DNA of 64,000 bases from an uncultured Candidatus Saccharibacteria bacterium (GTDB lineage Bacteria; Patescibacteriota; CALEFQ01). The position numbers and the translations under genes are program-made. The notes under the pieces are model-generated. The model was not told the DNA's origin. It ran no database searches and saw nothing but the letters and a program-made list of their open reading frames with translations. Where the stretch lies: contig OZ246404.1 in NCBI GenBank assembly GCA_965230955.1, forward strand, positions 353,184 to 417,183, in the 5' to 3' direction. Positions 4,408 to 61,668 of this stretch are shown here, one piece after another; within the stretch, counting starts at the first letter, position 1; each line of letters opens with the position of its first letter.

Positions 4408-5439
4408 ATGCATTGCGTTAATTTCGAGAACCAATTAGACGTTAACCAAAAAGGGATCTGGAGATTCCGCCGTTTTTTTAATACCGAGATAGCGTCCGAG
4501 TATCGGCTGACAATGCGGGAGGGGCATACGCCCCTGGAACCGCTGGTAGTCGGATCGCAGAAAATTTGGCTGAAACGGGAAGATAAAAATCCGCACGGTT
4601 CGCACAAAGATCGGTCTCTGGCTTATCAAGTTTCTCTGGCGCAGCAACAGGGGGCGACCGAATTGGTTATCTCTTCTTCCGGCAATGCGGCGATTGCCGC
4701 CGCGGCGTTTTGCCGGCTGGCAAAAATCAAGCTTTGGGCTTTTCTTGCGCCGACAATTCCTCGGCAAAAGTTCTTAGCCGTCAAAGAGTCGGGCGCCACC
4801 ATTATTGTCAGCCATCGCGCTATGCGCTTGGCCAATTATCTGTCCAAGAAAAAGAAATTAATCAATCTGCGGCCTTCCACCAATGATGACTCGATTGTCG
4901 GATTCAAAACCTTGGGGTTTGAGATTTTCGAACAAACGGAAAAGGTATTGCCGATTTTTACTTATGTTACCAGCGGCAGTTCGTTGATCGGCCTGGCTCA
5001 ATCCGGCCAGGAATTGCTGGCCGCCGGTTGTCTCAGCCGTTTACCCGCCTTAAACGCGGTTCAGTCCGGCGGCCTGGTATCGGCCGGGGGAGTCGTGGGC
5101 GATGAGACTGGCGCCAGTTTGGCCGGGCAAGGCGGTACCAGGAAGACCCGCCGCGCCGAGCAAATTATCGAAGCGGTGGGATTGAGCGGCGGACGGACTT
5201 GGCATATTTCCGAAGAGCAAATAAAAGAGGCGGCGGCGCTTTTGAGCCGGCAAAATATTCAGACTTCTTTTGAAGGTTGCGCTTCGCTGGCCGCGGTTAT
5301 CGCCAGCGGCGAGAGTGAGGCGGTATGTGTTTTGACTGGACGTTTTTATGAGAGCGAGCCGGTTTTGCCCGTCGATATGATCGGCGTGGCCGAGGCGGTT
5401 AATTTGGATCAAATTGATCAGTTGATTTTTCATGCCTAA
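4408..5439 (+). CDS. PLP-dependent fold-type-II enzyme (threonine synthase / cysteine synthase-like)
   Basis: PALP-family lysine motif GSHKDRS, glycine-rich SSSGNAAIAAA loop. Confidence 0.65.
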   Translation: MHCVNFENQLDVNQKGIWRFRRFFNTEIASEYRLTMREGHTPLEPLVVGSQKIWLKREDKNPHGSHKDRSLAYQVSLAQQQGATELVISSSGNAAIAAAAFCRLAKIKLWAFLAPTIPRQKFLAVKESGATIIVSHRAMRLANYLSKKKKLINLRPSTNDDSIVGFKTLGFEIFEQTEKVLPIFTYVTSGSSLIGLAQSGQELLAAGCLSRLPALNAVQSGGLVSAGGVVGDETGASLAGQGGTRKTRRAEQIIEAVGLSGGRTWHISEEQIKEAAALLSRQNIQTSFEGCASLAAVIASGESEAVCVLTGRFYESEPVLPVDMIGVAEAVNLDQIDQLIFHA

Positions 5440-6811
5440 AACGATAAACAATTTTGAGGATTGTCAGCGCTTGTTGGCGCCGGTTGAGGCCGATGTTTTT
5501 GCGCTGGGCAATTCGGTCTACCATGGCTTGGGATTGCTGGAAATATTGCCTTCCGCCAAAGTTATCTGTCTGGATGATGACAATTTATTGGTCTGGCTGG
5601 CCAAAGAAAAAGCGACGATTTTTTCGCTGGAGGAAAAGGGGGGGCGGCCAAAAAATGTTTTTCGCAGTAGTGCTAATTTATTGGCGGCGGAGCCGGTGCA
5701 AGCATTTCTTAAAAAGAATTCAACTCATCCTTGGCTCTATGTGCCGAAGTCTAGCCGACGGCTGGAAATCCAGGCTCAGAAAATCGGGGCGGAAATTATT
5801 GGTGCCAGCAGTGCGCTTAACCATCTCTTTGAAGATAAAATTTCTTTCACTAAAAAAATCGTGGAATGGGGCCTGTCTCGCGCGCCGCGCCAGGAAATCG
5901 AGGTTTTTCGCCCGGCTTTGTTTGACGCCGCTCGACGCTGGGGCTGGCCGCTGGTAATTCAGTTCAATCGCGGCATTGCCGGCGAAGGGACGAAGTTTTT
6001 AGAAAACCAGGCCGAGCTCGCCAGTTTCGCGGCTCAAAATGAAGGGCGGCCGGCGGTAGTGGCCAAGTTTGTTAAAGGTAAAACGATTACTCTCAATGCC
6101 TGTGTTACTTACCGGGGAACGGTAATCGGCCGGCCCTTTTGGCAGATTACCGGCGCCGCGACGCTCAATCGCAATCGCGGCGGAACCGGCGGTAATGACT
6201 ATGCCGCGGATTTGAAATTAAGCGATTCCCAATCGGCAGAGATCGCCCAAATTACTCAGCTGATCGGAGCCAAAATGTTTGCGGCGGGATACCGGGGCTT
6301 ATTCGGATTGGATTTGATCGTCGAAGAAAAAATTACCGTCATCGAAATCAATGCCCGGCCGACGGCTTCGATCCCCACCTATACGCAGTTGGAGCGCGAG
6401 AGCGGAGAAATTCCGCTTTTGGGTTTGCATTTGCTGGAATTTCTGCGGATCCCTTATGATTTTGACCTCGACCGTCTGAATCAAGTCAAAGCTAAAACTG
6501 ATTATCGGGGGAGCAAAGTAATTATTCGCAATACGACGGATCGGCCGATCGAAATCACCCGGGATCTGGCGCCGGGCGTATATGAGTTGGCGGAAGATCG
6601 TTTGGTTTTCAAGCGATTCGGTCGGCGGCTCAAGGATATCCGAGCCGAGGGAGAATTCCTGGTTTGGACGGCCAAGGCGCGACGCCAAATCAATCCGAAT
6701 ATAGAGATGGCTATCGTTTATTTCCGTCAGTCGGTGCTTGATAGTCAGTTCATCTTGCGCCCGGAAATCCGCGCCATTGCCGCTACCATTAAAGAACAAT
6801 TGCTTAAATAA
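5432..6811 (+). CDS. ATP-grasp ligase with extra N-terminal domain (459 aa)
   Basis: ATP-grasp core motifs (PLVIQ...G..GEG; GLFGLDLIVEE..ITVIEINARP). Confidence 0.6.
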   Translation: MPKTINNFEDCQRLLAPVEADVFALGNSVYHGLGLLEILPSAKVICLDDDNLLVWLAKEKATIFSLEEKGGRPKNVFRSSANLLAAEPVQAFLKKNSTHPWLYVPKSSRRLEIQAQKIGAEIIGASSALNHLFEDKISFTKKIVEWGLSRAPRQEIEVFRPALFDAARRWGWPLVIQFNRGIAGEGTKFLENQAELASFAAQNEGRPAVVAKFVKGKTITLNACVTYRGTVIGRPFWQITGAATLNRNRGGTGGNDYAADLKLSDSQSAEIAQITQLIGAKMFAAGYRGLFGLDLIVEEKITVIEINARPTASIPTYTQLERESGEIPLLGLHLLEFLRIPYDFDLDRLNQVKAKTDYRGSKVIIRNTTDRPIEITRDLAPGVYELAEDRLVFKRFGRRLKDIRAEGEFLVWTAKARRQINPNIEMAIVYFRQSVLDSQFILRPEIRAIAATIKEQLLK

Positions 6812-38975: not shown

Positions 38976-39066
38976 TTAACAAGTAACAGCTAACAGGTAA
39001 CAAATTTGAAGCATGAAGCTTCGATATTTTGATTTATTACCTGATACTTGTTCCCTGTTACTTTTA
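38973..39066. repeat. GTAACAG-heptad palindrome between coiled-coil genes
   Basis: taattaacaagtaacagctaacaggtaacaaat ... atttattacctgatacttgttccctgttac, with nested gaagcatgaagcttc hairpin in the loop. Confidence 0.8.
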
Positions 39067-39067
39067 T

Positions 39068-40303
39068 ATGAGTTATTTTTCCGAAAGTGAAATTGCTCGG
39101 GTGGAATGGCGCGTGCGCCAACTTCACGAAAAAATCCGCGAATTGGGCGGCGGTTCTTCTCGTCACCATTCGGGGAGTCAATTAGACGCGGCTATCAGCC
39201 AGCAACGGCGAAGTTTGGAACAGGCTAGATCGATGGCGCCGGGCGATACATCATCCGCGCCCGCGTCAAAAGCTGATTTTGGCGGGGAAATCGGTAAATT
39301 GCGGGATGAAGCGGCCAAGGCTAAACGTGATTTTGATGTTGCCCAGTCCGAGTCCGTCAAACTGAAAGACGAACTGACCAAGCTGAATACGGAAAAAATG
39401 CGCCGTTTGGGGCAGATGGAGCGCTTGGAGGAATCCATCAAGGTACGAAAAATCGATTTGGAGCGCGATTTATCGAGTGAACAACAAAAACTGAGCGAAC
39501 TAAAGAATAGTAACCGGGCTGATCCCGGTACGGTACAGTTGAAACGCCAATTGGCTCGAAAGCAGAAGCAACTCGTCGGCAAGGAAAAAATGTGGTACGG
39601 GCTTTCTCTGGCCAAACAGAAAGGATCGTTGACCGAGGGAGGTAGGAAGAAAGAAGAACAAGCGTTGAAATCAGAGGTGCGCGGCCTGAAATCGGAAGTG
39701 CGTTTACTGCGCGAACAGCTCAAGAAAGCAGATCGGGTGAGCGCCACGGCGGGGAGTGCGCGCACGGCCGGCCGAGTGCAACGCCAATTAAAAATAATCG
39801 CTGATATTCAAAAGGATATCGCCGATATCGATAAAGACGCCGATCGGGAACGGGCAGAGCATGACATGTTCATGGCCGATTTTCATAAAAGGGAGCGGGT
39901 AATCACCCAGGAATTATCACGGCACCAAGAAAGTTTGCAACGCCGTCAGCGCGAGGAGCAAGTTTGGCGGGTGAAACAGCGGGAGATGGAAGAAAAACAG
40001 CGCCAAGCATCAGGCCAGGATACGGCGTCGGCTCAATCTTCCGCTGCCGGAGCCGGCGGCCAGATCCATATGATTGAGCAGAAAATAAAAGATTTGGAAG
40101 CCCAGAAAGAAAAAGAAGGAAACAAAAAATTTCAGGTCGAAAAAATGGAATTGGACATGAAAGTCCTGGAACGGGATATGCAAATGCTCGAGAGCTCGAT
40201 CGCTTCTGCCGAACCGCAGTTGGTGGCGGCTTGTCAATCTCGCCTGCGCCGGATGATGAATGATTTTAATCAAGCCAAAGAAGATTTCCAAAAGTTAAAA
40301 TAA
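39068..40303 (+). CDS. Coiled-coil protein
   Basis: Long K/E/R/Q-rich predicted coiled coil; start at ATG 39068 after the palindrome. Confidence 0.45.
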   Translation: MSYFSESEIARVEWRVRQLHEKIRELGGGSSRHHSGSQLDAAISQQRRSLEQARSMAPGDTSSAPASKADFGGEIGKLRDEAAKAKRDFDVAQSESVKLKDELTKLNTEKMRRLGQMERLEESIKVRKIDLERDLSSEQQKLSELKNSNRADPGTVQLKRQLARKQKQLVGKEKMWYGLSLAKQKGSLTEGGRKKEEQALKSEVRGLKSEVRLLREQLKKADRVSATAGSARTAGRVQRQLKIIADIQKDIADIDKDADRERAEHDMFMADFHKRERVITQELSRHQESLQRRQREEQVWRVKQREMEEKQRQASGQDTASAQSSAAGAGGQIHMIEQKIKDLEAQKEKEGNKKFQVEKMELDMKVLERDMQMLESSIASAEPQLVAACQSRLRRMMNDFNQAKEDFQKLK

Positions 40304-40309
40304 TGCGCC

Positions 40310-41002
40310 ATGGCGGATATCAGCACCATTGAATCGCGATTGAAGAGCTTGCGGAGCGAGGTGGAAGCGGCTGGTTTCAGTATTGTGGGAATGTCGGGAC
40401 AGTTGGCCAAGTCAGCCGAGCGTCGGGAATTGGAAGCCATGCCTTCGCTTGCGGTTTTGCAAGGCGAGATGAAACGGGCGATGGATCAAAACAAGCAAGC
40501 TTCTCCGGCCGGAGCCAATCGGGTCTTTCAAATCACCCAGAAGATTGCGCGCCGGCGAGAGCTGGAAAAAAAATTCGATAAATCAAAATTTATCGCGAAG
40601 GCCGATGATTTATTGGCCAAGCTATCGATTATCCAAAATGATTATGATTCGATCATGGGATCGAGGCGGATGGCCGAAACCGAGGGAAGATCTTTGTCGG
40701 AAAAGGCTCGGAAAGTCGAGCAAGAGCGCAGTCATTTGGCCAACCAATATCGGGAATTGCAGTTGCGTCAAAAAGAAATTCGAACCGGCGACGATTACCG
40801 GCGCGTAGTGGACGATTCCAAACGTTTGGGCCAGCAGTTGCATTCTTTTTCCGCCGAACAGGAAGAAACCAAATCAAAAATACGCCAGTTTACCAGCCGA
40901 TTTGAACAAGTCGCTGGCATTCCGCCACAAACAATTCTGCGTGTAAAAACCGAATTAGACTTGATTAAAAAAAGCTTGGAACAAGCCAAGTTGGGACGCT
41001 AA
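40310..41002 (+). CDS. Coiled-coil protein
   Basis: Same composition class, contiguous with neighbours. Confidence 0.45.
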   Translation: MADISTIESRLKSLRSEVEAAGFSIVGMSGQLAKSAERRELEAMPSLAVLQGEMKRAMDQNKQASPAGANRVFQITQKIARRRELEKKFDKSKFIAKADDLLAKLSIIQNDYDSIMGSRRMAETEGRSLSEKARKVEQERSHLANQYRELQLRQKEIRTGDDYRRVVDDSKRLGQQLHSFSAEQEETKSKIRQFTSRFEQVAGIPPQTILRVKTELDLIKKSLEQAKLGR

Positions 41003-41003
41003 A

Positions 41004-41621
41004 ATGCAATCCAAACCACCGGTAAAACTAAATAGGCTGGAGCACCAGGCCGCCGAGCTGGAAGAAAGGATGGAAGCGGCTACGGCTCATTGGGAAAAAA
41101 TCGAGCGGGATAAGAAAACGATCGAGCGGGAAGAAATCGAGAGAGGTGTTTTACGCCATCATCGCGACGAATTGGCGGCTGCTCCGGAGATTGATCCTTT
41201 TTTGGATTCGATCAGCAAAATAGAAGCGGAATTGGCGCGCCGCCAAGAAGAGCTGAAAAAACTTTATCAAGAGGAATGGCCGAAAGAACGCCAGGAGCGC
41301 GATTCGAGGCGGTATGAAATGGAAGGTCTGCAAGCTCGTTTTCGCGTCATCAACGAGCGGGTTTTGTCCCTGAGACTGAAGTTGGCGGCCGAGGCATTGC
41401 GTAACAAAAAAGGCGATCGGCTTGATCCGGCCGAGGAGCAAAAAAGACGTTGGAATGAAGCGATCATTGCTAAGGAAATGTCCAAATTGGAACGGGAAAT
41501 GAAAGCTCATCCGGCGACGCCGCAGGATATGGCCAAGCTCAAAGAATTAAAAGCCGATCAGGCGCGGAACGATGATTTATCTCAGCCGCCGCCGATAATT
41601 ACTCCGAGTACTAATTTATGA
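41004..41621 (+). CDS. Coiled-coil protein
   Basis: Same composition class; overlaps alaS start by 4 nt. Confidence 0.45.
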   Translation: MQSKPPVKLNRLEHQAAELEERMEAATAHWEKIERDKKTIEREEIERGVLRHHRDELAAAPEIDPFLDSISKIEAELARRQEELKKLYQEEWPKERQERDSRRYEMEGLQARFRVINERVLSLRLKLAAEALRNKKGDRLDPAEEQKRRWNEAIIAKEMSKLEREMKAHPATPQDMAKLKELKADQARNDDLSQPPPIITPSTNL

Positions 41622-43948
41622 CCGCCCAGCAATTACGCCAACTTTTTCTGAAATTTTTCTCCGATCGAGGACACAAAATTATTCCCTCGGCTTCTTTGAT
41701 TCCGGAAAATGATCCTTCGGTTTTGTTTACCACGGCGGGAATGCATCCGTTGGTGCCGTTCCTGCTGGGCGAAAATCATCCGGCCGGTAAACGTTTGGTC
41801 GATGTCCAGAAATGCGTGCGGGTTGATGATATTGACGAGGTCGGGGATGCTTCGCACCATACTTTTTTTGAAATGCTGGGAAATTGGTCGTTGGGTGATT
41901 ATTTTAAGTCCGAGTCTGTCGCCTGGAGCTATGAATTTCTGACCGATAAAAAATATCTCGGCCTGGATCCGGTACGTCTCTATGTTACTTGTTTTGCCGG
42001 CGATGCTGATGCCCCAAAAGACCGGGCGGCGGCGGAAGCTTGGCAAAAAGCCGGAATTCCAGTCGACCGCATTTTTTTCTTGTCGAAAAAAGACAATTGG
42101 TGGGGACCGGCCGGAAAAATCGGTCCCTGCGGGCCTGATACCGAAATCTTTTATGATATTTTGCCGGCTCAGCCCAAATGTTCGCCTACTTGCGGTCCCG
42201 GCTGTCACTGCGGAAAATTTATCGAAATTTGGAACAATGTTTTTATGGAATACGAGAAAGTTGATACGGGAACGGAAGTGTTGTTTTTGCGCCATGGGGA
42301 AACGGATGGCAATAAGCAGTTGCGCATGCTGGGCAGTATTGATTTGCCTCTCAATGACGTCGGCGTAAAACAAGCCGAAGCACACCGGGCCATGGTCGCG
42401 GAATTTAAACCTGACGTTATCTTAACCTCGCCCTTGGAGCGGGCGGCCCAAACCGCCAAAATTATCGCTCCGTCCGGCGTGCCGGTGGTGGCGGAACCGC
42501 TGGCGCTGGAGCGCGATCCCGGCCGTCTGGAAGGTATGAATCAGGCGGAAATTTTGGCTGCCTGCCCCGGAGCCGAATATATAAAAAAGCAGGGCATCAA
42601 TTATTGCGTCAATCCGCCTGGCGGTGAAAGTTTGGAACAGGCGCGGCAGAGAGTGGAAAAACTATTCAAGAAAATGGTCGAAAATTACCGTGGTAAAAAA
42701 GTTGTGGTTGTTTCCCACGGCGACTTACTTGATATGTCGCTGGCGGTGCAGAAATCTCTGGCCTTGGAAGATGCGATCGGTCTTCACTCGTCGACATTGT
42801 CCCAAGAGAGTTATTCTTTGTACGAATTCCGTCCCTTGAAACAAAAAAATGTCGATACGGGCATGGGATTGGAGCGCACGCTGGCTGTTTTGAACGGTTT
42901 GGATGACGATTATCGCACCGAACTTTTTTGGCCGTTGATCGAAGCTCTGCAAGGATTGAGTGGCAAAAGATATGGGGAAAATGAACGAGATACTTTTTCG
43001 TTTCGAGTCATCGCCGATCATTTGCGCGCCGCCACTTTTATTATTGGCGATGAACATGGAGTGACGCCTTCCAATGTTGAGCACGGCTATGTTTTGCGCC
43101 GGCTGATTCGTCGCGCTGTCCGTTTTGGTAAAAAACTGGGCCTGAATACCGATCAGCACTTGTGTCGCGAGCTGGCGAATGTGGTGATAAAGCAATATTC
43201 GGCCGCTTATCCCGAATTGGAAAAAAGGGCTGATCGGATTATCACGGAACTGGAGCGGGAGGAAAGCAAATTCGAAAAAACATTGGCCAAGGGCTTGCGC
43301 GAGTTCCAGAAGCTGAAAGACAAAGGTATTAGCGGAAAAGAAGCCTTTGATTTGTTCCAGACTTATGGCTTTCCCATCGAAATGACCAGAGAATTAGCCC
43401 GGGAGCATGGTGTGGATATCAACCAGGCCGAATTTGACAAAGAGTTCAAAATGCATCAGAATATATCCCGACGCGGCGCGGAAAAGAAATTTGCCGGTGG
43501 TTTAGGCGAAAAAACGGTCGAAACGACGCGTTTGCACACCGCGACTCATCTGTTACACGCGGCTTTGAGGAAAATCTTAGGTCCTCAAGTTGAGCAGCGG
43601 GGGAGCAATATTACGGCTGAGCGTCTGCGTTTTGATTTTTCTTATTCCGCTAAACTGACGGAAGAGCAAAAGAAAGCGGTCGAAGATTTGGTGAATGAGC
43701 AGATAAAAGCGTCTCTGCCGGTCACGAAAGATATCATGACGGTGGCTGAAGCCAAAGCGGGGGGAGCGATGGGATTGTTTGAGAATAAGTATGGCGATAA
43801 AGTGTTCGTGTATAGCGCCGGCGATTTTTCGAAGGAAATTTGCGGCGGTCCGCACGTGACCAATACCGGAGAGCTGGGCCATTTCCGGATCAAAAAAGAA
43901 GAAGCCAGCAGCGCCGGTATCCGCCGCATCAAAGCAATTTTAGAATAG
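41618..43948 (+). CDS. alaS: Alanine--tRNA ligase with inserted histidine-phosphatase domain
   Basis: AlaS catalytic N-terminus (FTTAGMHP, WGPxGxxGPCGP, DTGMGLER) and editing-domain motifs (HTATHLL, CGGPHV). Residues about 219-410 form a phosphoglycerate-mutase-like domain (LRHGETDGN ... VVSHGDLL). Confidence 0.85.
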   Translation: MTAQQLRQLFLKFFSDRGHKIIPSASLIPENDPSVLFTTAGMHPLVPFLLGENHPAGKRLVDVQKCVRVDDIDEVGDASHHTFFEMLGNWSLGDYFKSESVAWSYEFLTDKKYLGLDPVRLYVTCFAGDADAPKDRAAAEAWQKAGIPVDRIFFLSKKDNWWGPAGKIGPCGPDTEIFYDILPAQPKCSPTCGPGCHCGKFIEIWNNVFMEYEKVDTGTEVLFLRHGETDGNKQLRMLGSIDLPLNDVGVKQAEAHRAMVAEFKPDVILTSPLERAAQTAKIIAPSGVPVVAEPLALERDPGRLEGMNQAEILAACPGAEYIKKQGINYCVNPPGGESLEQARQRVEKLFKKMVENYRGKKVVVVSHGDLLDMSLAVQKSLALEDAIGLHSSTLSQESYSLYEFRPLKQKNVDTGMGLERTLAVLNGLDDDYRTELFWPLIEALQGLSGKRYGENERDTFSFRVIADHLRAATFIIGDEHGVTPSNVEHGYVLRRLIRRAVRFGKKLGLNTDQHLCRELANVVIKQYSAAYPELEKRADRIITELEREESKFEKTLAKGLREFQKLKDKGISGKEAFDLFQTYGFPIEMTRELAREHGVDINQAEFDKEFKMHQNISRRGAEKKFAGGLGEKTVETTRLHTATHLLHAALRKILGPQVEQRGSNITAERLRFDFSYSAKLTEEQKKAVEDLVNEQIKASLPVTKDIMTVAEAKAGGAMGLFENKYGDKVFVYSAGDFSKEICGGPHVTNTGELGHFRIKKEEASSAGIRRIKAILE
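42272..42848 (+). other. Histidine-phosphatase (RHG) domain inserted within the alaS catalytic core
   Basis: Flanked by near-duplicate KVDTGTE / NVDTGMG coding segments (gttgatacggg / gtcgatacggg). Confidence 0.7.
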
Positions 43949-43983: not shown

Positions 43984-43988
43984 AATAT

Positions 43989-44697
43989 GAAGGTAGATCT
44001 CCACACCCATACCTGCTATTCCTACGACACTTTCACGCCGATGGAAAAGACCATTGCGGCGATACAGCAAAGTGGAATCGATTGTGTCGCGGTGACGGAC
44101 CACAACGAGGTGGCCGGTGCTTTTAAGATGCAAAAAATCGCGCCGTTCAAAGTGATTGTCGGTGAGGAAATACGGACAGCGGACGGGGAAATAATCGGTC
44201 TGTTTTTAAAAGAAAAAATCCCCGGCGGACTAGATCCGCGCGAAACCATTCGACGCATAAAAGAGCAGGGTGGTTTGGTCTATTTGCCTCATCCTTTTTG
44301 TTGGCTGCTCAATTCGAAATTGAAAAGTCCTCTGGTCTGGCAATATGTCCGGGAAGGATTGATTGATATTGTTGAAGTTTATAATGCTTCCGCCATTGCA
44401 TTGACTTCATTCAAAAAAGTCCATGAATTATTGACCGGTTCTCGGGCGGCCAAAGCGGTATCCACCGACGCGCATGTTCCCTATGAATTTGTCGGCGCAT
44501 GCGTGGAGATGGATCAGTTTGATGGTCCGCAGGATTTCCTCGCCAAAATAAAAAAAGCCCGGCTGATCATGAAGCCGGGATATCTCTATGCGACTTTTCA
44601 GATTATTTACAATTACTATATACGCACCAAGCTTTTCAAGGCACCGCACGGAGCCGAATTGGAAGCGGAGCTGGCCAAAAAACTCGCGGCCGAATAA
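43989..44697 (+). CDS. PHP-domain metal-dependent phosphoesterase
   Basis: MKVDLHTHTCYS ... VAVTDHN PHP motifs. Confidence 0.7.
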
Positions 44698-45891: not shown

Positions 45892-46569
45892 CTAAATTTC
45901 CCCGTGAATTTCTCTTTCCAATCTTTTGAAAAAATTCTGGGAAAAGAGCATCCTGTCTTTGGCCACTCGCTTTGCTTTTTCAGTGTATAGATAATTTAGG
46001 ATATGTTTGTCTTTTGTTTCCCAATTGATTTGAGGGCTATGTTTCGTTTTGTCTTGGATCCTTCCATTGATTTTGCCGCCCAGGTTTTCTTCAGCATACT
46101 TATTGATATCGGTTTTCTTGTAGATGTTCGCATTATTTCTACCGACCCAAACAAACGCCCTGGCCAGGCCAATCGCGCCGACGGTTTCTAATTTATCGGC
46201 GTCAAAAACGATTTCAGCTTCTTTGGTTTGGGGCTTGTTTTCGGTCCGATAGCGGTGAGAAATGATGCAATCTTGAATATGCTTAATTTTACTTTTGGAG
46301 TATCCCAAGCTATCTAGAATAGGCTCGGCCATTTTAGAGCTCTCAATGGCATGATCGGTTTTGCCGGTTGGATCATCGGCTTCTTTTTTACCTCCAATGT
46401 CGTGGAGTAGCGCGGCCGCTTTTATGACGTCCAAATCGACTTTTTCATTTTCAGCCAGATGTAGCGCCAAGTTGTAAACTCGCATAACATGGTCAAAATT
46501 ATGAGCAGAACAAAAAGCAAGTTCTTTTTTTACGATTTCTTTAATTTTTTCTATTTTTTCATCCATCAT
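45892..46569 (-). CDS. HD-domain phosphohydrolase
   Basis: H...HDIGG...D HD motif. Confidence 0.7.
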   Translation of the reverse strand: MMDEKIEKIKEIVKKELAFCSAHNFDHVMRVYNLALHLAENEKVDLDVIKAAALLHDIGGKKEADDPTGKTDHAIESSKMAEPILDSLGYSKSKIKHIQDCIISHRYRTENKPQTKEAEIVFDADKLETVGAIGLARAFVWVGRNNANIYKKTDINKYAEENLGGKINGRIQDKTKHSPQINWETKDKHILNYLYTEKAKRVAKDRMLFSQNFFKRLEREIHGEI

Positions 46570-46696: not shown

Positions 46697-48019
46697 CTAA
46701 TAGCGCAATGAGTCTTCCGCCATTTTTGTTACAGTTTCGTTTTCAAAGTTGTAAAGTTTTACTTGAGTTTGAGAAGAAGCCTCAGCGCTCTGCGGTGTGA
46801 TAACGACGAAATTTTCCGTGGTTTTGTTGGGATTGTTGTCTATCCATGTTCCGGAATTGGCGTAGATTGTTTTTTCGTTGTCGAGATTTTCGGACGCGAT
46901 AATTTTAGGTTCGTGCGTATGGCCAAAGACCACGATTCTTTTATCGGAGGCGGAATTCATGAAGTATTGCACCTTGGCCTGATTGTCGGTCTCGGTATTT
47001 GAACTTACTAAATCGATCGCTTCCGCCGTGTTGATATGAACCGGTACTTTGTTGAGTGTTTGCCGGGCCTCCCAGGTATCTTGAATTCCATTATAGAGAT
47101 CCACCTTTATTAATCCACCGGCAGTTGATTGATAAGGGACTATATCGTTCACGGAATAATTACCCTTGAATCCATTTACATTTGTTTGAATGATCTTCTC
47201 GTCAAATTTGTTTGTTATCGGGAATGTTTGAATTGTTCCCGCCCATTGTTTCCAGTATCTAAATAATAAATCCTGACTCTCACCTCCTGAAGTGTTTTGG
47301 GTGACAACCGGGAGGGTATCCCCGGGTGTTGGTTTGCCTTGGGCCACATAAAGTGCCGCTATTCTGGTAAAAAAGTATCCGGGAGGCAAGATCGTGCCCG
47401 GAGCGATTTTTTGATTTGAAATTGGATCGGGCGCACAAAAGAAATTGTAGCGGTGGCCATGCTCAATCGCTATTTGGGGATAATCAATCGGGGAGTAAGT
47501 ACCTAAGCCCAGCTCTTCATCCCGTGCCTGATTTATCCCCGGAAGGACATTTTCAATATTGGCGGCCGTAACTGTTAAATCATGATTTCCGGGTAAATAG
47601 GTGACCAGAATATTTTTTTCTTTAATGATACTGTTTATGGCATCAAATACGCCTTGGTTGGCTGTCGCAATCCGCCGGACGAAGTCAGCCTGGTCTTTTC
47701 CCTGATAAGTATCTATTGTTGCCGGGACAAACCATTCATCGAACAGGTCTCCGCCGATAACCAGTTCTTTCACATTGGGAGCGGCTTTAATCTGTTTCAG
47801 CAAATTTTCCAGAGCCGCCAGGTTTTTGTTGCACTCGGCATAACTCAGGTCGGCGCCGAGATGCATATCACTGAGAACAACTATCATATTCCTTTCATTA
47901 CCGCCATTGCTGAATGGGTTTGTCTCGGTATCGGCCTGATCCGACGTACCGCATGAGGTAAAAACACTTAAGCTGGTCAGAACGAAAAAAACACTTAATA
48001 ATCGCGTAATGGTTTTCAT
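46697..48019 (-). CDS. Secreted lipoprotein, calcineurin-like metallophosphoesterase
   Basis: Lipobox-like signal (LTSLSVFTSC), MPP motifs DMHLG, GGDLFDEW, GNHD. Confidence 0.7.
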   Translation of the reverse strand: MKTITRLLSVFFVLTSLSVFTSCGTSDQADTETNPFSNGGNERNMIVVLSDMHLGADLSYAECNKNLAALENLLKQIKAAPNVKELVIGGDLFDEWFVPATIDTYQGKDQADFVRRIATANQGVFDAINSIIKEKNILVTYLPGNHDLTVTAANIENVLPGINQARDEELGLGTYSPIDYPQIAIEHGHRYNFFCAPDPISNQKIAPGTILPPGYFFTRIAALYVAQGKPTPGDTLPVVTQNTSGGESQDLLFRYWKQWAGTIQTFPITNKFDEKIIQTNVNGFKGNYSVNDIVPYQSTAGGLIKVDLYNGIQDTWEARQTLNKVPVHINTAEAIDLVSSNTETDNQAKVQYFMNSASDKRIVVFGHTHEPKIIASENLDNEKTIYANSGTWIDNNPNKTTENFVVITPQSAEASSQTQVKLYNFENETVTKMAEDSLRY

Positions 48020-61059: not shown

Positions 61060-61668
61060 ATGAAATTGACCCGTGTAATCTTATTACGCCAGGGTGGTAC
61101 CATGTGGCACGATCAGGATCAACTGGTCGGGCAAAAGAACGCTGAATTGTCGCTCTCCGGTTTGGTGCGGGCGGAAAAAACAGCTCAGTTATTGAGCTCG
61201 GAAAAAATCGACGCAATTTTTTCATCTAATCTGGGGCGGGCGATAGACACGGCCAAAGCGGTTGCCAAGTATCATCGGCTTCGAGTTATGGCTGATCCCG
61301 AGCTGAATGAACGAGGATTTGGAGATTTGGAAGGGAAAAAACGCAAAGAGCTGGTCAAAGAGCTGAAGCATTTACGCCAAGAAATGGAGAGCAAACCGGA
61401 AGGCGGGGAAAGCGATTATCATTTTGAAAGGCGCGTTGTCGGTTTTCTGGAAGAATGTTTGAAGCAAAACGAAGGAAAAGTGCTCCTCCTGGTTTCGCAT
61501 GAAGGGCCTATCCGGGTAATGCAGCGATACTTCAGCCGTTTTGATACTACCAAAGGAGACGATGACTATCGGGCTTCTTTGGGCGGAATCTCGGAATTTG
61601 AAGTAAAAAGTCTGGCTCCGCTCGAAGTTGCGATCAAAAAATGGGATGCGGTTGAGCACCTGAGCTAA
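61060..61668 (+). CDS. Histidine-phosphatase (phosphoglycerate-mutase-like) family protein with RHG changed to RQG
   Basis: LLRQGGTMWH in place of RHGE; C-terminal LLVSHEGPIRV (SHGG-like). Confidence 0.6.
   Translation: MKLTRVILLRQGGTMWHDQDQLVGQKNAELSLSGLVRAEKTAQLLSSEKIDAIFSSNLGRAIDTAKAVAKYHRLRVMADPELNERGFGDLEGKKRKELVKELKHLRQEMESKPEGGESDYHFERRVVGFLEECLKQNEGKVLLLVSHEGPIRVMQRYFSRFDTTKGDDDYRASLGGISEFEVKSLAPLEVAIKKWDAVEHLS

Follow-up and report, generated by a model that had tools for sequence, protein, structure and literature searches.

A histidine-phosphatase domain at the active-site hairpin of a short alanyl-tRNA synthetase, and related inserts in valyl- and isoleucyl-tRNA synthetases of candidate phyla radiation bacteria

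Aminoacyl-tRNA synthetases (aaRSs) rank with the most conserved enzymes, and class II members classically accommodate whole domains between their motifs 2 and 3, as exemplified by the INS editing domain of bacterial ProRS, the GAD domain of AspRS and the insertion domain of HisRS. To our knowledge, new catalytic domains in bacterial aaRSs nearly always serve tRNA binding or proofreading. The short histidine phosphatases, such as H. thermophilus PspA (4IJ5), B. stearothermophilus PhoE (1H2E), mycobacterial GpgP, Rv3214 and CobC, are proteins of ~180–210 residues that carry an R-H…R…E…H catalytic set and work independently, usually as dimers. Here we analyze 64,000 nucleotides of DNA (hereafter the window) from an uncultured Candidatus Saccharibacteria bacterium (GenBank assembly GCA_965230955.1, contig OZ246404.1, positions 353,184 to 417,183 of the forward strand), whose alaS gene encodes an alanyl-tRNA synthetase (AlaRS) with a histidine-phosphatase domain inserted in its catalytic core. 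The insert shares the catalytic set of the free phosphatases, being 22–29% identical to the solved ones and 35–40% identical to the best metagenomic free relatives, whereas it is embedded in another enzyme. Its place is within the catalytic sheet, after motif 2 and before motif 3, and, like the ProRS, AspRS and HisRS domains, it occupies this position as a whole domain with the sheet preserved; however, those domains have unrelated folds (no homology to INS or GAD is seen) and aminoacyl-tRNA-directed or structural roles, whereas the AlaRS insert is a predicted phosphomonoesterase. Judged from its sequence, this AlaRS uses the classical slot between motifs 2 and 3 of class II enzymes to carry an accessory catalytic domain.

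The host enzyme is a short-form AlaRS of 776 residues encoded by an uninterrupted open reading frame (ORF) (41618..43948, + strand). Against NCBIfam PRK01584 (NF002436, short alanine–tRNA ligase, a profile of 595 positions), for which the cut-off is 529 bits, it scores 873.7 bits in two stretches that break near profile position 203/217, at the insert, and Pfam also finds tRNA-synt_2c in two stretches (E = 3.8e-131), together with a C-terminal tRNA_SAD domain. The N-terminal part of the aminoacylation domain (aa 1–219; 41618..42274, +), delimited by an alignment of 17 AlaRS sequences (8 insert-bearing and 9 insert-less) and matched by PDB AlaRS structures over aa 1–218, contains motifs 1 and 2 and the outgoing active-site strand with N206 and V208, and ends at the hairpin tip G218-T219. 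The remainder of the synthetase (aa 404–776; 42827..43948, +), identified by Pfam, NCBIfam, the alignment and PDB matches, comprises the returning strand, motif 3 (VDTGMGLER, aa 412–420; 42851-42877, +), the tRNA-recognition domain and an editing domain with its HxxxH (640–644) and CxxxH (742–746) motifs. Residues N206, V208, D413, G415, G417, R420, H640, H644, C742 and H746 are invariant in all 17 aligned AlaRSs, the 8 insert-bearing ones included, in agreement with the initial annotation, which had described the catalytic and editing motifs of this AlaRS as intact. The AlaRS core of insert-bearing proteins is 60–66% identical to insert-less outgroups, the same range as in insert-less AlaRSs of the candidate phyla radiation (CPR); by this comparison the core evolves at a normal rate and there is no sign of synthetase decay.

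Alignment with insert-less AlaRSs places 184 extra residues exactly between T219 and F404. Insert-less enzymes follow the pattern “…VFMQYNK-x-x-x-G-x|F-x-P-L-x-Q-K-N-V-D-T-G-M-G-L-E-R” and thus have only “K-x-x-x-G-x|F-x-P-L” at this place, where the window protein has an insert flanked by “…FMEYEKVDTGT” and “FRPLKQKNVDTGMGLER”. The insert (aa 220–403; 42275..42826, +) joins the synthetase without linkers and belongs to branch 1 of the histidine phosphatases, the short PhoE/PspA-like type; the boundaries of 42272 and 42848 given previously were right to within a few codons. Pfam His_Phos_1 (PF00300) covers aa 221–391 over profile positions 1–171 of 194 (E = 1.2e-39, 136.5 bits against a gathering threshold of 21.7), so that the claim of a phosphoglycerate-mutase-like domain of about 190 residues with RHG and SHG motifs inside the AlaRS core holds for an in-frame and complete domain. 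The position is the tip of the β-hairpin directly ahead of motif 3. Its two strands hold V208 and D413, which we take to be the equivalents of E. coli AlaRS V214 and D235 that line the alanine pocket, and the insert therefore caps a hairpin that forms part of the active site. Among the solved AlaRS structures in the PDB, none has a domain at this hairpin, and AlaRS is not known to have acquired one at this place.

All members of the His_Phos catalytic set (R225, H226, R275, E298 and H367) are present and are invariant within the AlaRS-insert clade. The phosphate-binding arginine and the nucleophilic histidine lie in R225-H226-G227 (42290..42298, +), and both are invariant in the copies embedded in AlaRS and, as described below, in valyl- and isoleucyl-tRNA synthetases (ValRS and IleRS). 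The second catalytic arginine, R275 of the “SPLERA” motif (42440..42442, +), and the second catalytic histidine, H367 of “VSHGD” (42716..42718, +, within SHG at 42713-42721), are likewise invariant across embedded copies, and the putative proton donor E298 of “LERD..LEG” (42509..42511, +) is invariant in the 8 AlaRS inserts and in the other embedded copies except one in a class I aaRS. In two AlphaFold2 (AF2) models the insert has a pLDDT of 86–99 and adopts the α/β fold of the histidine phosphatase superfamily. On these sequence features the insert is a complete and apparently active phosphatase domain.

Which phosphatase it resembles can be narrowed only in part. The cofactor-dependent phosphoglycerate mutase profile TIGR01258 (pgm_1) yields 45.9–48.4 bits against a cut-off of 81.7, matching the first ~115–135 residues alone; the α-ribazole phosphatase profile CobC (TIGR03162) yields 92.5–96.7 bits against 162.9, and the phosphoserine phosphatase profile PspA (NF045917) yields 65.7–69.7 bits against 350. 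The second-best NCBIfam match, at 93–95 bits, is the bifunctional RNase H/acid phosphatase (NF005567, Rv2228c type), in which a CobC-like phosphatase is also joined to a nucleic-acid enzyme. However, that protein is an end-to-end fusion with another partner, and the score lies far under the family's cut-off of 326 bits, which excludes the insert from membership. The best structural neighbours of the insert are phosphatases rather than mutases. Since no NCBIfam equivalog cut-off is reached, the insert is regarded as phosphatase-type and not mutase-type, with a specificity that cannot be transferred from any of these families.

The insert is not confined to one assembly. The identical 776-residue protein occurs in three independent Logan assemblies and in an NCBI genome that includes a contig of 1.14 Mb, and its homologue P0004 is present on at least 24 contigs. 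Insert-bearing AlaRSs form only 8 clusters at 90% identity, which at 50% identity fall together as a single one of 1.84e9 representatives; the 8 clusters (100, 82, 81, 80, 79, 65, 65 and 64% identity) have the three-domain architecture in common. In 8 of 8 homologues the insert measures 183–184 residues and sits at the same position with identical boundaries, and a neighbour-joining tree, whose deep nodes are unsupported, groups the AlaRS inserts as monophyletic with 97% bootstrap. At the insert-bearing loci the genes stand in a common order: MnmA, small ORFs, coiled-coil ORFs, alaS and a gene for a PHP-domain protein. The insert-less CPR relative L089 retains MnmA, two small ORFs and alaS, and the insert-bearing alaS is therefore an ortholog rather than an extra copy. 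In the window the GC content of the insert is 0.525 against 0.485 in the rest of alaS, but this offset vanishes or reverses elsewhere, and across five lineages insert GC parallels host-gene GC from 0.38 to 0.53. From these comparisons, one ancient insertion event took place at the hairpin tip and was followed by vertical descent.

Both parts of the gene appear constrained. In the comparison of the window gene with that of P0004, the insert has a dN/dS of 0.07 and the remainder of the gene one of 0.05, with dS saturated; since synonymous sites are saturated past the closest pair, dN and residue conservation are the usable measures there. Deeper comparisons give 48–54% identity for the insert versus 65–72% for the core. 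By these substitution patterns the insert is under purifying selection, with its catalytic residues kept. The clade that carries it is a small CPR group, probably Saccharibacteria: among named relatives the nearest is a metagenome-assembled genome of Candidatus Saccharibacteria (L005), whose binning-derived name calls for caution, and other genes of the window (a sortase, a type IV secretion system (T4SS)-type ATPase and a giant immunoglobulin (Ig)-like protein) are in keeping with a CPR bacterium. A scan of genome contigs found, among the matches listed, at least one insert-bearing AlaRS (L005) and at least four class I aaRS hosts. As had been proposed as a check, alignment with related AlaRSs indicates that the insert is lineage-specific. 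With 8 clusters the AlaRS form is rare, and by the sequences compared it is not a generic trait of AlaRS; short AlaRSs without the insert are the rule, even in CPR bacteria.

The same comparisons bear on the possibility that the arrangement is an artefact, a pseudogene or a recent local duplication, that is, junctions created by an assembly chimera or a frameshift, or a recent copy of a nearby paralog that left a scar. An 11-nt repeat lends this some initial appeal: a 5′ copy, gttgatacggg (42260..42270, +), codes for V-D-T-G of the hairpin, and a 3′ copy, gtcgatacggg (42851..42861, +), provides the codons of the motif 3 V-D-T-G, these being the only two matches of the 11-mer in 64 kb against 0.05 expected. 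The slightly higher GC content of the insert in the window points the same way. The repeats around the domain had been taken for a duplication scar, and the repeats are real, but the scar is not: the 3′ copy starts 8 codons past the insert boundary, the 5′ copy falls, in the alignment, on “K-x-x-D-G-T” of the ancestral hairpin, and the ancestral F-x-P-L-x-Q-K-N residues lie between the two. Moreover, no such repeat is seen in four further insert-bearing lineages, L085, L004, L087 and L005, which have KVDADT, KKKTGT, KVSTGT and KQATGT at this place. An intein, or a mobile insertion with target-site duplication, was rejected on similar grounds, as the junctions read GT|EVLF and SLYE|FRPL, lacking the Cys/Ser of an intein's N-junction and the His-Asn plus Cys/Ser/Thr of its C-junction, and the repeat is offset from both of them and unconserved. 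From these alignments the repeat is a lineage-specific, peptide-level coincidence.

A nearby donor fares no better. The window does contain, as had been noted, a second and free-standing member of the family (61060..61668, +; 202 aa, Pfam His_Phos_1), but as a source of the insert it was rejected: it shares only 30% identity with the insert, is not its sister in the tree and has RQG for RHG. This paralog carries glutamine in place of the nucleophilic histidine and also N-to-H and G-to-E changes at two conserved positions, while its nearest relatives all have RHG, and it is probably a catalytically dead pseudo-enzyme; the AlaRS-embedded copy is therefore the sole intact His_Phos domain of the window. 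The frame through both junctions is continuous, the identical protein recurs in independent assemblies, eight diverged homologues have the same boundaries, the insert bears the marks of purifying selection and other lineages lack the GC offset or show it reversed. Hence neither a frameshift nor an assembly chimera is found at the junctions, and the comparative data refute the artefact explanation, to which we attach hardly any probability.

Histidine-phosphatase domains are also embedded in class I aaRSs of other CPR bacteria. A profile built from the 8 inserts was searched with HMMER against the 1.84e9 representatives, and the best 150 matches were examined. The search returned one AlaRS-embedded representative at 329 bits, after which scores drop to 167 bits. 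Fifteen of the best 150 are non-AlaRS proteins longer than 450 residues, and 13 of these 15 are class I aaRS-like by phmmer against ValRS; Pfam or NCBIfam confirmed a class I aaRS in 11 of the 11 submitted from these 13. Of the other two of the 15, P0281 consists of His_Phos repeats only, with P0256 left unchecked. By contrast, when the insert alone was used in a word-index search, all matches were free-standing proteins of at most 40% identity and even the parent AlaRS was missed, so this search is uninformative on hosts. NCBIfam identifies as ValRS the hosts P0394, P0395 (MBI2056443.1, Candidatus Sungbacteria), L081 (Moraniibacteriota), L042 and P0242, the last with four tandem copies, and as IleRS the hosts P0249 and P0258, which contain two divergent copies apiece. 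Insert-bearing class I aaRS genes lie at 2579-5386 of L016, 2606-5830 of L081, 2627-4864 of L042 and 1387-3411 of L009. With a ValRS query, PF00300 is found in 90 of the 120 best clusters, many of them named Liptonbacteria, Wolfebacteria or Paceibacteria, so the ValRS form is far commoner than the AlaRS form with its 8 clusters. The 64-kb window itself has no class I aaRS with an insert; its large ORFs are SecA, the Ig-like surface protein and the T4SS-type ATPase.

These inserts belong to the same domain family and, as in AlaRS, lie in-frame in a loop of the aminoacylation domain flanked by core motifs. In ValRS the site is the zinc-knuckle loop “WYCxxC...|...CxxCG...DTLDTWFSS”, corresponding to residues 423–437 of T. 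thermophilus ValRS, and in IleRS it is the homologous loop between “WAISRxRYWGxPxPxW” and “VLDCWFESG”. The R-H...R...E...H set is retained in the embedded copies, with the single exception of copy 1 of the IleRS-type protein P0369, which has Q for E. Unlike AlaRS, a class II enzyme, these hosts are class I enzymes with a Rossmann fold, the insertion site is non-homologous and 2–4 tandem copies are frequent. The inserts of ValRS and IleRS share ~30–37% identity with that of AlaRS, without support for their monophyly with it; outside AlaRS, the AlaRS insert is best matched by a free 209-residue protein (35%) and by the P0394 ValRS insert (37% over 178 residues). The sequences make separate captures by AlaRS, ValRS and IleRS likely, and we tentatively estimate the number of independent captures at three or more. 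In literature whose coverage was thin for subscription journals, we found no paper on histidine phosphatase domains in aaRSs; the aaRS-embedded His_Phos domain is a wider CPR pattern that is present in public databases and of which we found no description.

Two observations on individual ValRS loci may be added. The P0394 insert and the free-standing P0250 (201 aa) pair at 100% bootstrap, which hints either that the domain moved recently between its free and embedded forms or that a gene was split. The L042 ValRS is split over three ORFs (745, 180 and 243 aa; region 4861-6142) with a frame change at 4861-4864, reflecting either an assembly error or a split gene, and its relatives are named Liptonbacteria or Paceibacteria.

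The breadth of hosts matters for whether the phosphatase has anything to do with aminoacylation. It could instead be an unrelated hitch-hiker, a housekeeping small-molecule phosphatase acting on phosphoserine, sugar phosphates or nucleotides that settled in permissive hairpins and is kept for its own metabolic activity. Such an origin fits the closest relatives, which are generic metabolic phosphatases (PspA, PhoE, GpgP and CobC, all under their family cut-offs), and a top non-AlaRS sequence match that is free-standing; the pairing of a ValRS insert with a free protein suggests that the two forms exchange easily, tandem copies exist, the active sites of the two enzymes are inferred from modelling to lie far apart, and with the only free copy of the window probably catalytically dead, the embedded one may supply this activity to the cell. 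However, aaRSs make up only a few percent of a proteome, and 13 of the 15 long non-AlaRS proteins among the best 150 matches are aaRS-like. The aaRS hosts come from both of the unrelated aaRS classes and represent at least three enzymes, which is improbable by chance, and in both classes the insertion is into a hairpin with active-site motifs at its base. We regard a hitch-hiking phosphatase as possible but less probable than a charging-linked one. Because the non-phosphatase hosts found are all aaRSs, of both classes, with the inserts on hairpins rooted in active-site motifs, we lean slightly, at a little better than an even chance, towards a physical coupling of phosphatase to aminoacylation that was selected rather than accidental.

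Structural modelling indicates how the two domains may be joined. In an AF2 model of aa 1–450 computed from an 80-sequence alignment (pLDDT 88, pTM 0.82), strands 201–225 and 396–417 are continuous, with a junction pLDDT of ~89–92, and the first and last strands of the phosphatase sheet directly continue the AlaRS hairpin. The model suggests that this β-ribbon is a rigid stalk on which the phosphatase is mounted. From the strand lengths, with V208 and H226 set 16–18 residues apart, the active sites of synthetase and phosphatase would be separated by ~45–60 Å. Histidine phosphatases use a histidine nucleophile and act on terminal phosphomonoesters. On account of this superfamily chemistry and the modelled distance, hydrolysis of the adenylate in cis is unlikely, and the earlier suggestion that the domain might act on an aminoacyl-adenylate is not favoured; a phosphorylated tRNA end or a nucleotide, suggested alongside it, may still be the target.

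A rigid connection of this kind would also suit a regulatory or structural module, in which binding of a phospho-metabolite or transient phosphorylation of H226 would be signalled through the β-ribbon to the active site and would adjust charging to the metabolic state, or in which the insert serves to dimerize an AlaRS that lacks the C-Ala domain. The modelled strands tie V208 and D413 to the phosphatase sheet, the ValRS and IleRS inserts are likewise placed between catalytic-core motifs, and short AlaRSs of the type described by the 595-position profile have no C-Ala dimerization domain. As short histidine phosphatases are usually dimeric, the two divergent copies in IleRS could moreover make an internal pseudo-dimer. 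Against a purely regulatory or structural role, the whole catalytic set is kept, including the proton donor, which favours turnover over binding, and short AlaRSs without the insert manage without it. We consider such a module unlikely.

A catalytic role linked to charging remains our preferred reading. Because selection maintains both halves, the product is, going by the conservation described above, most likely a bifunctional AlaRS–phosphomonoesterase. The best overall explanation, to which we give about an even chance, is an ancient insert in an orthologous alaS, with both halves under selection and as part of the CPR pattern, whose coupling to aminoacylation was probably selected. In the mechanism that we prefer, though with low confidence, the embedded phosphatase would take a terminal phosphomonoester off a nucleotide or an RNA linked to charging. 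First among the candidates would be a (pyro)phosphate at the 3′ terminus of the cognate tRNA, where it would prevent aminoacylation, with a nucleoside monophosphate as the fallback. The assignment of the substrate as a 3′-phosphorylated cognate tRNA end is tentative, with a fairly low probability. Lower still is the chance we would give to its extension to all of the CPR aaRS-embedded phosphatases (AlaRS, ValRS and IleRS), which would make them tRNA-end repair modules that remove a 3′-phosphate or pyrophosphate so that the cognate tRNA becomes chargeable.

Such 3′ phosphates could come from toxSAS/CapRel-type toxins or from metal-independent ribonucleases. toxSAS toxins pyrophosphorylate the tRNA 3′-CCA end and thereby stop aminoacylation, with tRNAs chosen by their acceptor stem (10.1101/2021.04.30.441581; PMC11559606). 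Their action is undone by small alarmone hydrolase antitoxins (10.1101/2021.04.30.441581; PMC11782079), which the insert resembles in hypothesised function only, as the antitoxins are HD-domain hydrolases of unrelated fold.

Several points weigh against a charging-linked phosphatase, and against tRNA-end repair in particular. Since short AlaRSs without the insert are the rule even in CPR bacteria, the insert is dispensable for alanylation. The nearest relatives of the insert, at 35–37% identity, mix ordinary free phosphatases with a ValRS insert, and the deep nodes of the tree are unsupported; a dedicated aaRS subfamily is therefore not demonstrated. The tandem arrays of 2–4 copies in ValRS and IleRS are not an obvious need of a tRNA-end repair site. 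Finally, we know of no member of the histidine phosphatase superfamily that acts on RNA 3′ ends.

A conserved phosphatase, catalytically intact as judged by its residues, on active-site hairpins of both aaRS classes in several CPR lineages nevertheless points to an unrecognised charging-linked activity in minimal-genome symbionts, which could be repair, regulation or salvage. Should tRNA-end repair prove true, it would represent a third catalytic site on a synthetase besides those for synthesis and editing, and the first RNA-end phosphatase of its superfamily. The inserts have practical consequences as well. Insert-bearing ValRS clusters are annotated merely as “class I tRNA ligase family protein”, a name that the insert leads the NCBI pipeline to give to many ValRSs, and metabolic reconstructions may count such proteins as phosphoglycerate mutases.

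The surroundings of alaS contain further phosphohydrolase genes. A PHP-domain phosphoesterase gene (43987..44697, +; Pfam PHP) lies 38 nt downstream of alaS and adjoins it at every insert-bearing locus, with 61–100% identity; tblastn finds it in L001–L005 and L085–L088 only, and it is missing beside the insert-less alaS of L089. Its product shows weak matches to CehA/McbA metallohydrolases, 3′,5′-bisphosphate nucleotidase and RNase RNM. Just past the PHP gene are genes for an HD-domain phosphohydrolase and a calcineurin-like phosphoesterase (45892-46569 and 46697-48019, both on the − strand), so that the insert and the PHP, HD and calcineurin-like genes form a local cluster of phosphohydrolases. 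Upstream, three successive ORFs at 39029-41621 (+; 424, 230 and 205 aa) encode charged, coiled-coil-like proteins without a Pfam match. The last of these overlaps alaS, its stop and the alaS start overlapping by 4 nt, which suggests a single operon. ORFs of 230 and 205/206 residues also precede alaS in the closer insert-bearing loci L001–L003 and L085/L086, with other sizes in L004 and L087. No tRNA genes were found in the 64-kb window.

Two minor features of short-form AlaRSs were also observed. A cysteine cluster, C188/C192/C196/C198 (C-x3-C-x3-C-x-C; 42179-42211), precedes the active-site strand; it is near-invariant among short-form AlaRSs and gone from the insert-less CPR protein P0034, and it may be a metal site. 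In addition, the short-form AlaRSs P0019, P0020, P0024 and P0082 (651–672 aa) carry another insertion, of ~55–75 residues and unrelated to His_Phos, past the tRNA-recognition helix at columns 681–760 of the AlaRS alignment, and short-form AlaRSs therefore tolerate insertions at more than one site.

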